A stretch of DNA of 64,000 bases from Candidatus Tayloriibacteriota bacterium (GTDB lineage: Bacteria; Patescibacteriota; Minisyncoccia; Phycocordibacterales; HO2-43-120), in the NCBI GenBank assembly GCA_039934295.1, contig JBDTMN010000003.1:10625-74624 (forward strand), in the 5' to 3' direction. The notes below the pieces were generated by a model. That model was not told the DNA's origin and did no database searches. It saw only the letters and a list, made by a program, of their open reading frames with translations. Positions 27,118-30,592 of this stretch are shown here, one piece after another (position 1 is the first letter of the stretch; the number at the start of each line of letters is the position of its first letter). Both the position numbers and the translations under genes were made by a program.

Positions 27118-27224
27118 GGTAAAGTAGTGTGAAAGTTTTTAAGCTACTCCCTATTTTCATATGCGCGAACTAGTGGACGAAGCGGGAACTGCTATCCAAA
27201 CCCACAATGATTATATTTATCTAC
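27118..27224 (-). promoter_or_regulatory. Conserved promoter/leader element, copy 1 (TTAGGTAGATAAATATAAT .. GATAGCAGTTCCCGCTTCGTCCACTAGTTCGCGC .. AAATAGG)
   Basis: Shares a ~60-nt core with the regions 28476-28640 and 29774-29943, all directly 5' of minus-strand genes. Confidence 0.45.
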
Positions 27225-28475
27225 CTAATTTAGAACAGAAAGCAATGCCTCGAGAGAAGATTTCTCACTAGAAATATTGGGATTTACTGCTCTTAACTCG
27301 CGCAGAACTGTATCAATCTTTCCGTCAATAAGAGTCCATTCTTTTGCATCTTTTGGCTTTAATCTCGCCTGCGCGGTGTCCCATTCGTATTCCAAATCTC
27401 CTATACGAGTTTTAGCGCCTGACTGATCTCCTACATTCAGCTTGTTAAGTGTATCTTGAGTAATAGTACGAAATAGAGAAAGATCTCCAAGTGATGAAAC
27501 TGGTTTATTTGACTGCACTGAAGTTCCCACACCCAACACACTTTCTTGTAATTTAGTTTTCTGTATCTGGTATCCTATCCCCCCAAATAAAAGAAAGATA
27601 AGACCGACAACAATAGTTTGCCATAAACCACCTTTCTCTTTTATTTCTTCATCATTCTTTGAGGTATTTGTGATGACATCTCTTTTGGTAATGGAAAGAT
27701 AAGTTACTATTCCTATAATTCCAAGGATAAAAATTGCACTTGTGGCGGTAACACCGAGCCCAAGTCCGCCGTGATTTCTTGTTTGTGAGAGATAGTCGCC
27801 AATCGAAGCGCCGAGCGGGCGGGTCATAATGTAAATAATCCAAAATGAGAGAACGGAATTAAGCCTAAAGTTCCAAGCAACCCCCGTAACAGCGATTACT
27901 GATGCTACTATGATTCCTGTCATCAAATATCCGAGCGCAAGGCCTTCGGACATTAAATCACCTGAAGCTGTTCCAAGCGCAAATGTAAAAAGAATAGCAA
28001 GCCAATAAAATACTTCTCTGCGGGTCGTAAAAATAGAGTGCACAGAAAGTGTTTTCTCCTTAACATACCAGACAATAAAAGTAACACCTAGAAGGACGGA
28101 GAAAATTATTGTGCTCGTTTCCAGAGGCACACCGATTCTATCGGTAAGATTGTCAGTTATTAAAGTCCCAAACACACTTACCAGCGCTACGGTAATCCAG
28201 TAAATAGTCGGAATATATTTCTTAGATCTAAATTGAAAAATAAACGCAACTATAAGTAAAACACCAGTGATAACAGATGTGCCAGTAAGACCGAGATTAA
28301 GATTGACATTGAGAAAGTCAGCGGCGGTTTCACCTATAGTTGTACAGAGTATTTTAATAATCCAGAAATACAAAGTAACTTCTGGAACTTTGTTTAGCAT
28401 TTTCACTACTAAACTTGAATCTTTGTTTTGATTAAACATATCCATGCGCACAACTATACCACAGTTCAGGTCCAC
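27225..28475 (-). CDS. Membrane protein (N-terminal ~8 TM, C-terminal soluble domain)
   Basis: 416-aa ORF, preceded by leader copy 2. Confidence 0.45.
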   Translation of the reverse strand: MDLNCGIVVRMDMFNQNKDSSLVVKMLNKVPEVTLYFWIIKILCTTIGETAADFLNVNLNLGLTGTSVITGVLLIVAFIFQFRSKKYIPTIYWITVALVSVFGTLITDNLTDRIGVPLETSTIIFSVLLGVTFIVWYVKEKTLSVHSIFTTRREVFYWLAILFTFALGTASGDLMSEGLALGYLMTGIIVASVIAVTGVAWNFRLNSVLSFWIIYIMTRPLGASIGDYLSQTRNHGGLGLGVTATSAIFILGIIGIVTYLSITKRDVITNTSKNDEEIKEKGGLWQTIVVGLIFLLFGGIGYQIQKTKLQESVLGVGTSVQSNKPVSSLGDLSLFRTITQDTLNKLNVGDQSGAKTRIGDLEYEWDTAQARLKPKDAKEWTLIDGKIDTVLRELRAVNPNISSEKSSLEALLSVLN

Positions 28476-28640
28476 TACACCCGCTTCGCCCTTTGAAGTT
28501 TTAACGAAAGAGGGTGGACTTTTCGTGTCTTAAAATAGGGCTAAAAACTTGGCGCGAACTAGCGGACGAAGTGGAAACCAGAATACGAGGGAATGGTGGG
28601 GATATTTATATACCTGATTTCTGCAAAAAATTAACTATAG
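28476..28640 (-). promoter_or_regulatory. Conserved promoter/leader element, copy 2 (includes CACCCTCTTTCGTTAAAACTTCAAAGGGCGAAGC module)
   Basis: Near-identical blocks to 29774-29943. Confidence 0.45.
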
Positions 28641-28746
28641 CATAGTATCAGATTTACTTTATTGGTAGCGGCCAGAATACTCCGAGGGCTTCCCGCGGGC
28701 ATGGACGATCGGCAAACTTTATTATTTAAAAACTAATAGGTGTATA

Positions 28747-29142
28747 ATGAGGTATTATTATTTAACTATTTTTCATATGACAAACGAGAAAAAAGTAGAG
28801 TGGATTTTAAGAATTGGTGTCGCCGGTGAATTTTTTGGTCACGGAGTCTTTGCTGTTATGGGAAAAGCTGATTGGATAAAGTGGACAGAACAATTGACTG
28901 GGCTTGATACGGCAACAGCTACGACATTTATGCTTGTGGTAGGAATAGTGGATATTTTATTAGCAACTTTAGTACTCATAAAACCAATCAAACCAATTCT
29001 GCTGTGGATGACCTTCTGGGGTTTCTGGACTGCTCTTGTGAGGCCACTAGTAGGTTTGCCTATTTGGGATTTCGTAGAGCGTTTTGCAAACTGGGCAGCA
29101 CCTTTGGCGCTTTATTTCTTTTACAGAAGCAAGAATAAATAA
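28747..29142 (+). CDS. DoxX-like small membrane protein
   Basis: 131 aa, four hydrophobic helices. Confidence 0.45.
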   Translation: MRYYYLTIFHMTNEKKVEWILRIGVAGEFFGHGVFAVMGKADWIKWTEQLTGLDTATATTFMLVVGIVDILLATLVLIKPIKPILLWMTFWGFWTALVRPLVGLPIWDFVERFANWAAPLALYFFYRSKNK

Positions 29143-29227
29143 ATTACCAAAAACTTGGCGCGGACTAGTGGACAAAGTTGCCTGCCCGTCCGAAGCTTCA
29201 GCGAAGGCGGGGGAACTACGATTATGT

Positions 29228-29773
29228 CTACAACACATACTCCCAGCCTGGTTGCCAAGATTTAGTTTTTCTCCAATCTTCATCCAAAGCTTCCCTCCAA
29301 GTTTTACCATTAAGCAATACATCCAATGAAAGTTGGGGTGCTTTGTGGGACACAATCGCAACACTTTTCCCATCATAATTCTTTTTCAAAAACTCGAGAA
29401 AATCAGCGACCCGAGTTTTGACATCTTCATAGCTTTCACCATCTGGAAACTTTTTTAAAATACATTCTTCTTCCTGCATAGGCTCTATAATTGAAGAAGA
29501 GCCCCCGTTTAGTTTTCCATAGTTGCATTCTCGCAATCTCTCGTCGGGAATAATTGTGTAAACCCCTTCCCAGGCCAGCTTTGCAGATTTAACGGCGCGC
29601 TTTAAATCAGAGCAGAAAATTACGTCAAATTTTTTATCTTGAGTCTTTTCTTTCAAATCTATTGATTGTTGTATTCCGAGTGGGGAAAGCTCTACATCAG
29701 ACCAACCCGACGAAATTTCTTTTTCGTTGTCTATTGAAGTGCCGTGCACGAAATATGTAATCTTCACAGACAT
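29228..29773 (-). CDS. Histidine phosphatase superfamily (phosphoglycerate-mutase-like) protein
   Basis: N-terminal ITYFVHGTS (RHG-type motif) and CSDLKRAVKSA region. Confidence 0.6.
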   Translation of the reverse strand: MSVKITYFVHGTSIDNEKEISSGWSDVELSPLGIQQSIDLKEKTQDKKFDVIFCSDLKRAVKSAKLAWEGVYTIIPDERLRECNYGKLNGGSSSIIEPMQEEECILKKFPDGESYEDVKTRVADFLEFLKKNYDGKSVAIVSHKAPQLSLDVLLNGKTWREALDEDWRKTKSWQPGWEYVL

Positions 29774-29943
29774 ATCAAAATAGTATCACAGTTCGAGCAC
29801 GACACCTGCTTCGCCCTTTGAAGTTTTAACGAAAGAGGGTGAATTTTCTGTGTCCTATTTATTAGCTAAAACCGATGCGCGGACTAGTGGACGAAGTGAG
29901 AACTGCTATACAACAGCATAATGGTTATATTTATATACCTAAC
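29774..29943 (-). promoter_or_regulatory. Conserved promoter/leader element, copy 3
   Basis: TTAGGTATATAAATATAACC .. ATAGCAGTTCTCACTTCGTCCACTAGTCCGCGC .. TAATAAATAGG .. CACCCTCTTTCGTTAAAACTTCAAAGGGCGAAGCAGGTG, then ATG. Confidence 0.45.
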
Positions 29944-30486
29944 TTAAGCAGATAGTTTGCCTTTTAATACATCCAAGACCTTACTTATGCCATCTTTACC
30001 TCCTGACCATATATTTGGACTTTTATCCATTGAATCTAAAATGTCCTCTGCCATCATCCACTTAATTTCTTGGACTTCACCATCATTAAATTTCAAAGTG
30101 GCTATATTGCCCTCAAACCTATAATAGAAAGAATGAGTAAATTCTCTATTGGGATCATGGTCTCTTTTATACACCTCTCCTTGAATTAAATCACCTTGTT
30201 CTAATTCTAAGCCGACTTCTTCCATGAGTTCATCCTTTATTGCATCTTCAATGCTCCCCCCACTTTTTATATGACCACCAAATCTTGTATCCCAACAGTT
30301 AGGATGTAAATCTTTATCCTTAGAGCGTAAATGAACTAAAAATTCTATTTTATCGTTTATTTTTTTAAATAGGTAAATGTGAACAGTTCTATGCCAAAAA
30401 CCCGTTGAATGGATAACTGAGCGTAGTTCTCGTTCACCAGTTAAGTCATTGCTTTCGTCTACTAAGTCTAGATATTCGTCTGCCAT
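29944..30486 (-). CDS. NUDIX hydrolase
   Basis: Nudix box GGHIKSGGSIEDAIKDELMEEVGLE. Confidence 0.75.
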   Translation of the reverse strand: MADEYLDLVDESNDLTGERELRSVIHSTGFWHRTVHIYLFKKINDKIEFLVHLRSKDKDLHPNCWDTRFGGHIKSGGSIEDAIKDELMEEVGLELEQGDLIQGEVYKRDHDPNREFTHSFYYRFEGNIATLKFNDGEVQEIKWMMAEDILDSMDKSPNIWSGGKDGISKVLDVLKGKLSA

Positions 30487-30592
30487 AATTTTATTATAGC
30501 AGTTCCACCGTCCAATAGACCAGCAGAAAAAGTGCCTTCCGTGAGAACTGAAAATGCCATATCAAATATAGATATTATTTAGAAATTTCGCT

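Follow-up and report, generated by a model that had tools for sequence, protein, structure and literature searches.

How does nearly the same intergenic sequence come to stand before several functionally unrelated genes? The question is raised by 64,000 nucleotides (nt) of DNA from a Candidatus Tayloriibacteriota bacterium (contig JBDTMN010000003.1, positions 10,625 to 74,624; called the window below, always at its full length), in which a 33-nt core of the form A-N5-GTTCCCACTTCGTCCACTAGTCCGCGC occurs four times within 3.4 kb on the minus strand. A reading made earlier from the letters alone (the sequence-only reading) had explained the repeats as a promoter followed by a structured, riboswitch-like 5′ leader of ~130 nt before four adjacent genes, or as the common operator of a regulon. 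Our preferred interpretation, which is tentative and which we would put slightly below an even chance, is that the repeats are modular terminator/promoter junctions that hold a tiny transcription unit and act as exchange points for accessory genes. The intergenic module is so far undescribed: its core sequence was not found in the literature searched, and nothing relevant was found there on integrons or leaderless promoters of the candidate phyla radiation (CPR).

The Repeats in the Window

A search with the core CACTTCGTCCACTAGTYCGCGC, allowing up to two mismatches, gave four matches (at 27163, 28552, 29158, and 29877). All four are on the minus strand; the rest of the 64 kb and 100 dinucleotide-preserving shuffles yielded no further match (0 expected by chance). 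Repeat finding and alignment placed the copies (designated IG1 to IG4) where the sequence-only reading had seen them, and the intergenic regions do have promoter sequence in common. Examination of both strands showed that four genes and every repeat have one orientation, that of the minus strand (open reading frames (ORFs), Pfam); the genes are thus co-oriented as described, and a 131-aa gene of opposite orientation (28747–29142) lies inside the array. The coding sequences of the array belong to different families (NUDIX, His_Phos_1, DUF347 x4, and two without Pfam match) and the similarity between the window copies ends at the start and stop codons. Since the coding regions are unrelated, a segmental duplication of the genes is ruled out, in agreement with the earlier view that unrelated functions are involved.

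Two regions had been listed as fragments. The one at 29143–29227 indeed contains the repeat, but the core is complete there and only split by a 30-nt insertion; that at 30487–30560 has no full core and consists of a promoter-side module only, which is also seen in loci L031, L038, and L044 (loci related to the window are numbered with an L). GC-rich, hairpin-forming core insertions of 19–30 nt were found in IG3, in L038 (~6600–6620), and in L017 (~5560–5585), at differing positions within the core, and two of the three have CCGCC...GGACGGnCAGG in common. Besides the core, an AT-rich motif, TTAGGTATATAAATAT, occurs three times and a CACCC...GGTG hairpin module twice, the two hairpin modules sharing an identical stretch of 34 nt. 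The AT-rich motif had been called −10-like; it is without a TAnnnT hexamer, the sole TAnnnT of the unit being TATGNT, 10 nt further. A further block, CAATAAAGTAAATCTGAT, stands in the non-coding stretch upstream of IG2 and before the element in L008, L031, L024, L017, and L002; it may be left over from a former upstream unit.

Anatomy of the Element

Anatomy, array arrangement, conservation, selection, and homology breakpoints are shown by the sequences. In the direction of the genes, the element begins at or just past the upstream stop codon with an AT-rich dyad, GGTATATAAATATA(A)CC, of which lineage versions exist (GGTATAT..ATATACC, GCTAT..ATAGC, and GGATATAT..ATATCTCC). The dyad is followed by a −10-like hexamer (TATGNT, TATACT, or TATAAT), the only one of the TAnnnT type in the unit; 22 of 25 copies retain its A2 and T6, and its positions 4–5 vary. 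Six nt past the hexamer an invariant A opens the C-rich core, ATnGCAGTTCCCACTTCGTCCACTAGTCCGCGC. Because 37 of 38 copies have this A (at −13), even where their upstream sequences are unrelated, and nothing upstream of it is conserved, the core has a sharp 5′ edge. Over 70 columns the alignment of the 25 dyad-bearing copies contains no indel. The core looks like a series of three direct GT(T)CC(C)AC repeats; it is without dyad symmetry and unstructured.

In 19–21 of the 38 copies, a forward intrinsic terminator (A-tract, hairpin, T-run) lies 3–20 nt past the core. The terminators comprise at least ten unrelated hairpin sequences, none of which is overlapped by anything in the core; the commonest hairpin is always in the forward orientation, and one of its pairs varies between G.U, A-U, and G-C on the gene strand. 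The promoter of the next gene follows the terminator, with an extended −10 box 6–7 nt before the ATG and a spacer that often contains GGACG-N2-3-GAACTG, which is the core in shortened form and inverted. In locus L002 from Saccharibacteria the element is cut down to core and promoter, and the promoters are without the inverted partial copy.

Predicted Promoters at the Start Codons

Since three of the four minus-strand genes have a TGnTAnnnT box 6–7 nt before the ATG (Table 1), these boxes are read as leaderless promoters, and each gene is predicted to have its own at the start codon. This geometry is found at about a third of the ATG-start ORFs of the window, housekeeping genes included: TAnnnT is present 5–8 nt upstream of 10 of 31 such ORFs versus 6.6% of random ATGs, and a Shine-Dalgarno-like 4-mer precedes only three of the 31. 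With promoters at the ATGs, a shared leader of 130 nt is unnecessary for expression. The motif GGAC-N-GAACTG occurs in the window solely in the array promoters and, inverted, in the cores (5 matches versus 1.1 expected).

A separate observation concerns loci L040 and L045, where poly-G tracts of 11 to ~20 G directly precede a TAGAAT box ~20 nt upstream of the start codon of a group-II-intron-like reverse transcriptase gene. The arrangement could be a phase-variable promoter.

Distribution in Other Patescibacteria

Related loci were searched for with an exact 20-mer of the core in one genome per GTDB species and in metagenome contigs. The search for further copies, which the sequence-only reading had proposed, yielded none elsewhere in the 64 kb. 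The 20-mer is present in about 35 other low-GC contigs: 10 loci in GTDB genomes, all of them Patescibacteria (Saccharibacteria, Paceibacteria, Parcubacteria, Nomurabacteria, and Zambryskibacteria), and about 27 further low-GC metagenome loci. High-GC loci with the exact 20-mer number about 7, which is near the chance expectation of roughly 9, and no match was obtained in viral contigs, phage records, or plasmids. A profile search with the 82-nt unit adds degenerate copies.

The element is usually found in same-strand arrays with one copy per gene. Such arrays are present in L002 (five copies) and in L016 and L038 (three each); two copies each are found in L012, L017, L021, L024, L026, L027, L032, L044, and L047. 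The genes between the copies encode, for example, an APH-type kinase, peptidase S51, PG-binding proteins, thioredoxin together with an ArsP permease, MauE, uridine kinase, two Fic proteins, SLT, MFS, 2′-5′ RNA ligase, DUF7689, another NUDIX protein, and the group-II-intron-like reverse transcriptase. In L006 a lone core stands at the 3′ end of murC and in L008 a gene for a large serine recombinase adjoins a core. In five metagenome loci (L020, L022, L028, L033, and L040) the element is a discrete unit of ~66 nt with unrelated flanks on both sides.

Selection and Proposed Exchange at the Element

Two loci with related neighbors indicate how strongly the element is conserved. In L040 and L045 the reverse transcriptase genes are ~86% identical in nucleotide sequence, whereas the block from dyad to hexamer and the core are identical at 57 of 57 positions, and 5 of the 10 positions between these two blocks differ. 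The chance of no change in 57 positions is ~2e-4, and therefore both blocks are under purifying selection or are homogenized by gene conversion, with the spacing between them fixed.

The element also coincides with the ends of homology. On the right side of the core, L024 and L037 are identical over 2707 nt; on its left side they are unrelated from a distance of 10 nt onward. By comparison, L040, L044, and L045 have at least 217 nt to the left of the core in common (L040 and L045 1090 nt) and diverge 1–7 nt past it. Thus, homology breaks at the core edges in all four informative pairwise comparisons, which come from two sets of related contigs. The loci, moreover, are mosaics of modules: two kinds of upstream block, the core, several terminators, and the promoter.

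Public short-read assemblies of the source strain break inside the identical 34-nt stretch (L052, L053, and L056). A contig from another sample (L054, from SRR26386621) joins the left part of IG2 to the right part of IG4 and corresponds to window positions 28457–28839 joined to 28859–29902. It is a circular permutation containing 1306 nt of a 1325-nt unit composed of the His-phosphatase gene, IG3, the 131-aa gene, and an IG2-IG4 hybrid, and may be an excised mini-circle, a tandem duplication, or an assembly chimera.

Tests for RNA Structure

The repeats gave no match in Rfam at the gathering threshold or at E ≤ 10, neither in the window nor in 11 + 11 related loci. RNAalifold found 0 consensus pairs in the 25 indel-free copies, and in the dyad there were 0 double changes, not above shuffles, so that the covariation check of aligned copies that had been suggested came out negative. 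Folded as RNA, the dyad has an energy of just −2 to −5 kcal/mol, and the two strands do not differ in this respect. From core to ATG the folding z-scores on the gene strand are −0.2 and −1.1, not significant versus shuffles, and that on the opposite strand is −2.5; the opposite strand folds better because the CACCC...GGTG hairpin has its G.U pairs on that strand. Duplexes of the core with targets in the 64-kb window were not found above shuffled queries.

A Proposed Modular Junction Between Accessory Genes

According to the model that we prefer, the element would punctuate arrays of individually transcribed accessory genes in many Patescibacteria (CPR bacteria). Its small unit would be composed of a weak −10 box overlapped by the dyad, the 33-nt segment from the predicted start, and a terminator. 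Where the element abuts the stop codon, the mRNA of the upstream gene must cross the core to reach the same terminator, which would make the core a common 3′ tail, a short RNA, or both. It would be transcribed as the 3′ tail of the upstream mRNA or, from the weak promoter of the element, as a short RNA of ~60–70 nt, and the RNA would end at the terminator. That the core is transcribed, and what it is for, we infer from sequence; it would be read as sequence by a partner rather than as a folded riboswitch. The separate promoter past the terminator would give a leaderless mRNA of the next gene. Gene units would be swapped by recombination at the element, since it is the sole conserved sequence in variable islets. 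In the window the forward terminators would have been lost or replaced by the hairpin that folds better on the other strand. Without terminators, and with the hexamer intact in IG4 only, transcripts from IG4 could run into the His-phosphatase gene. The leader of the sequence-only reading could then be a second, longer transcript of this gene.

The predicted small unit resembles small RNAs (sRNAs) embedded in 3′ untranslated regions, of the type of DapZ and MicL, which have an internal promoter and share the terminator of the mRNA, and it also resembles multi-copy sibling sRNAs. Features in common are a −10 box close to the stop codon of the upstream gene, a conserved 5′ segment that is single-stranded and sharply bounded, terminators of variable sequence, and several paralogous copies. 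Of the parts of a putative sRNA gene, a TAnnnT-like hexamer with the invariant A 6 nt downstream is seen in 22 of 25 copies (in IG1 and IG2 the hexamer is degenerate), and a terminator directly follows in 19–21 of 38 related copies; the four window copies have none. It differs from DapZ and MicL in that no target was found in the 64-kb window, that the invariant segment of 33 nt is unusually long, and that the copies lie at variable genes and recombination breakpoints.

With exchange at so conserved an element, it would work like the mobile regulatory cassettes called promoter-early stem-loops (PeSLs), which are found in T4-like phages (Arbiol et al., 2010, PMC2839356; Comeau et al., 2014, PMC4122927). 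In the variable regions of these phages, short conserved composite terminator/promoter repeats, the PeSLs, separate small non-essential genes; the stretches in which related phage genomes differ begin and end in PeSLs, and recombination of neighboring PeSLs can yield deletions and mini-circles (PMC2839356; PMC4122927). These cassettes appear to be the closest analog, of which the element would be a cellular, cross-class variant with an additional invariant core. Terminator and promoter are both present in 19–21 of 38 related copies (the window has the promoter and no forward terminator), breakpoints lie in the repeats (L024/L037; L040/L044/L045), and L054 has the topology of a mini-circle but may be a graph chimera, its joint lying in a 34-nt repeat longer than the assembler's k of 31. 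In contrast to PeSLs, the element is found in cellular chromosomes of Patescibacteria, with no viral, phage, or plasmid match, and is common to several classes; it has an invariant 33-nt core and a dyad, neither being promoter or terminator, and its promoter would give leaderless mRNAs.

It should be noted, however, that several points weigh against the junction model. Its promoter within the element, its transcription start (the invariant A), and its short RNA are predicted from sequence. The hexamer is without a −35 box or TG extension and is intact in IG4 alone, being degenerate in IG1 and IG2, i.e., in two of the three dyad-bearing window copies, and the forward terminator is absent from all four copies of the window. 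No RNA target was found in the 64-kb window above shuffled controls, and an invariant stretch of 33 nt exceeds typical sRNA seeds or operators in length. Since phage PeSLs have no counterpart of the core, the analogy leaves the conservation of the core unexplained. The apparent invariance is inflated because the loci were sampled by an exact 20-mer. Finally, the joint in L054 lies in an exact repeat of 34 nt, longer than the assembler's k of 31, and therefore a graph chimera at low coverage is possible.

Alternative Explanations

The homology breaks at the core edges in four of four informative comparisons, the co-oriented arrays of unrelated accessory genes with a site after each, and the near-invariance of the core across Patescibacteria classes would also be expected if a dedicated recombinase, encoded elsewhere, recognized the core or made its crossover there, giving integron-like arrays in which each cassette has its own promoter. 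We regard this as unlikely. The lone core at murC in L006 would resemble an empty target, the serine recombinase gene in L008 adjoins a core, and the array of the window adjoins a tRNA gene with a duplicated 3′ end. Arrays of integrons, including the near-identical chromosomal VCRs of Vibrio, likewise contain co-oriented unrelated accessory ORFs with a repeat at each 3′ end, and the cargo here (NUDIX, Fic, kinases, small membrane proteins) is cassette-like. attC sites keep a common structure, with R″/L″-L′/R′ boxes (R″ RYYYAAC ... R′ GTTRRRY), and their sequences vary. The element, on the contrary, is invariant in sequence with no such hairpin conserved; the R″/R′ boxes are missing and the inverted partners CAGTTC...GAACTG have the order GTT...AAC and are absent from many copies. 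The core itself has direct repeats rather than dyad symmetry, and its gene units carry their own promoters versus the promoterless cassettes of integrons. Among the best 25 of the 43 Pfam families matched by 35 window ORFs there is no integrase, transposase, or other recombinase, and no intI, attI, or Pc nearby. The sole candidate excision joint (L054) lies outside the core, within the hairpin module at its longest identical stretch, where homology-driven exchange or an assembly chimera would place it, and the constant placement of a terminator just past the core is not needed by a recombination site. A bolder version, to which we give a low probability, is that Patescibacteria have a gene-cassette system of their own, in which the core and the accessory dyad are recognized by a conserved recombinase or nucleic-acid-guided enzyme encoded elsewhere. 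Such an enzyme would insert, excise, and shuffle promoter-bearing accessory units, and the system would be a functional analog of the integron on an unrelated site. In a variant of this, the core may be a common 3′ RNA tail recognized by the group-II-intron-like reverse transcriptase that adjoins the core in L040, L044, and L045.

Dyad symmetry is kept in the lineage-specific versions and the dyad overlaps the hexamer region, and the intergenic regions do contain an operator-like, AT-rich site, in keeping with the common operator of the sequence-only reading; that one transcription factor binds the dyad, and maybe the core repeats and the inverted partial copy, to co-regulate the accessory genes is a rival that we consider rather improbable. 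It would account for the confinement of GGAC-N-GAACTG to array promoters and, inverted, cores, and for transporter and redox neighbors such as ArsP and thioredoxin in L017, and an NRAMP-like permease and a CsoR-like repressor that are so named by ORF sequence alone, without Pfam match. TATAAATATAACCATTATG matches the Fur-box consensus at 14 of 19 positions, which is a lead only. But the dyad is nearest the upstream stop codon rather than a gene start, the distance of dyad or core to the promoter ranges from 14 to >100 nt, usually with an intervening terminator, no theme unites the functions of the genes, conservation of the core goes far beyond that of known operators, and the L002 promoters are without the inverted copy. 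Still less probable is a selfish miniature repeat (like miniature inverted-repeat transposable elements (MITEs), REP, BOX, or Correia elements) inserted between stop codon and terminator, without function and with the exchanges as by-product. The discrete ~66-nt unit with unrelated flanks and the BOX-like modular build speak for it, and core and inverted partial copy are readable as degenerate terminal inverted repeats. Against it, the 64 kb contain just four copies, all in one islet of 3.4 kb and strictly co-linear with the genes; neither target-site duplications nor intact terminal inverted repeats were seen in the window and related loci, no autonomous partner was seen, and cross-class conservation with purifying selection relative to a neighboring gene is unusual for MITEs. 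Pneumococcal BOX and neisserial Correia elements are species-level, high-copy, and dispersed, often with inverted ends. They are also modular and intergenic and able to carry promoter or terminator activity, whereas the element is low-copy, clustered, gene-co-oriented, and conserved across classes. Very improbable, finally, is the control of each gene by one distal promoter and a structured leader that senses a ligand or a protein (riboswitch or attenuator). The order promoter-like hexamer, conserved segment, terminator, gene in related loci would suit it, and the 3′ arm of the hairpin (GGGCGAAGCGGG) could pair with its own 5′ arm or with the core (CCCGCTTCG), attenuator-like. However, there is no Rfam family, consensus structure, or covariation, folding of the gene strand gives no significant z-scores, the conserved part has no structure and is just 33 nt long, the terminators are unrelated in sequence without core overlap, and a separate leaderless promoter is predicted at each ATG, with terminator and second promoter intervening at many related loci.

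Other candidates were tried and rejected. A small ORF antisense to the core (MRGLVDEV..HNGYIYIPNL) has an unconserved start codon, only its core-encoded residues are common, and there is no codon-position periodicity. In an 11-codon leader peptide of the gene strand (M-x-x-Y-S-S-S-H-F-V-H-stop) the ATG is changed to ATA, ATT, or ATC in about a quarter of the copies; ORFs ending in the core have 7–30 codons and unrelated starts, yet the TAG of the core is invariant. The core is not the 3′ end of a conserved long gene, since only murC of L006 reaches it, and an invertible terminator switch between core and inverted partial copy is excluded by the shared terminator being always forward. The reverse complement of the core is cassette-promoter-like up to GAACTG, but as antisense promoter its next hexamer lacks a conserved final T. 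A stable RNA hairpin at the dyad is contradicted by the low folding energy without strand asymmetry, and a DNA uptake sequence, dif site, or Ter site by copy number and clustering. A link to the His-phosphatase gene itself was also dismissed: homologs with ~80% identity are found in three other Patescibacteria contexts, one of them within a ribosomal-protein operon, and the element is absent from all three. The element is therefore not bound to one particular gene.

Genes and tRNAs Around the Array

The features of the array are given in Table 1. Elsewhere in the window there are housekeeping genes (DnaB, SecY, IF3, ribosomal proteins, and CysRS, by Pfam). The source name of a 100%-identical protein points to a metagenome-assembled genome of Candidatus Taylorbacteria.

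Table 1. Genes of the array and parts of the intergenic element, listed in the direction of the minus strand (positions are those of the window).
Feature	Position	Strand	Basis or remark
Promoter-only module before NUDIX gene	30487-30560	-	no full core
Half-core CAGTTCTCAC + GGAAGGCAC + T-run	30527-30550	-	in promoter-only module
Inverted core-like GGACGGTGGAACTG	30500-30513	-	in promoter-only module
Extended -10 TGCTATAAT	30493-30501	-	N6, then NUDIX ATG at 30486
NUDIX hydrolase gene, 180 aa	29944-30486	-	Pfam PF00293, E 3.6e-12
IG4, full element copy	29774-29943	-	alignment; nhmmer 70 bits
IG4 dyad AGGTATATAAATATAACC	29923-29940	-	begins 3 nt past NUDIX stop
IG4 -10-like TATGCT	29915-29920	-	
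IG4 33-nt core	29877-29909	-	
IG4 spacer ATCGGTTTTAGCTAATAAATAGGACAC...	29844-29876	-	
IG4 hairpin module	29803-29841	-	
IG4 CGTGCTCGAACTG	29789-29801	-	
IG4 extended -10 TGTGATACTAT	29780-29790	-	N6, then His-phosphatase ATG at 29773
Histidine phosphatase gene (His_Phos_1), 181 aa	29228-29773	-	Pfam
IG3, element copy	29143-29227	-	dyad absent; complete core, but split
IG3 core half GTAGTTCCC	29211-29219	-	
IG3 GC-rich insertion in core, 30 nt	29181-29210	-	
IG3 core half CAACTTTGTCCACTAGTCCGCGC	29158-29180	-	
131-aa membrane protein gene, inverted within array	28747-29142	+	ORF; no Pfam match
Non-coding stretch	28641-28746	-	with CAATAAAGTAAATCTGAT at 28647-28664
IG2, full element copy	28446-28640	-	alignment; nhmmer
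IG2 dyad	28598-28615	-	followed by degenerate hexamer
IG2 core	28552-28584	-	
IG2 hairpin module	28478-28516	-	
IG2 GGACCTGAACTG	28462-28473	-	
IG2 extended -10 TGTGGTATAGT	28453-28463	-	N7, then DUF347 ATG at 28445
Integral membrane protein gene, four DUF347 repeats	27225-28445	-	Pfam PF03988, E 1.9e-59
IG1, element copy	27118-27227	-	nhmmer 60 bits; hairpin module absent
IG1 dyad AGGTAGATAAATATAATC	27209-27226	-	overlaps DUF347 stop codon
IG1 core	27163-27195	-	next ATG at 27117
199-aa integral membrane protein gene, final array gene	26518-27117	-	ORF; no Pfam match

Several observations were made next to the array and beyond it. On the minus strand at 30760–31100 there is a tRNA-like gene, apparently interrupted by a group I intron: Rfam Intron_gpI matches at 30821–31051 with 43 bits (E 8e-9), which is under the gathering score of 50, and the match is flanked by a tRNA 5′ half (GCGGCTGTAGCTCAACGGTAGAGCACTCCCCTGTGGA; GTG in the anticodon loop) and a 3′ half ending CAGCCGC. 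The gene is called by neither ARAGORN nor the Rfam tRNA model. Its 3′ end (GCGCGGCT...GGGTGCTG on the plus strand) is present twice, at 30595–30613 and 30775–30793, 180 nt apart and directly beside the first array gene, and this duplication could be the scar of an integration at the tRNA gene. A second duplicated tRNA end near the array is that of tRNA-Met (TGTGTCGGGGGTGGGATTTGAA, 25 nt) at 31761–31785 and 31905–31929, the two being 144 nt apart and 96% identical. At 50641–50731 on the minus strand ARAGORN reports a tRNA of 91 nt with undetermined identity and a 2-base "anticodon," which may be another interrupted or unusual tRNA. Two giant ORFs lie on the minus strand, at 13303–20817 (2504 aa) and 35436–43880 (2814 aa), the former with SpvB, FG-GAP, RHS, and YD-shell domains (precomputed matches for the matching contig). 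In another Patescibacteria genome (L058, 8001–11692), a block of His-phosphatase, APH, methyltransferase, APH, and HicAB interrupts the ribosomal-protein operon between L5 and S14, and a ParE toxin pair is found between S10 and L3.

Implications

Patescibacteria have tiny genomes with few recognizable regulators and few known mobile elements, and the element bears on how they gain and express accessory genes. In a genome of Taylorbacteria the leaderless promoter geometry is now documented as widespread. If the junction model is true, the element would be a handle for variable gene islets in metagenome-assembled genomes and would explain why assemblies break there. The core would be a candidate site of conserved nucleic-acid recognition, and co-occurrence analysis could reveal the protein that takes part in it. 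For Saccharibacteria, whose genetics is emerging, the element would supply ready-made promoters and terminators.

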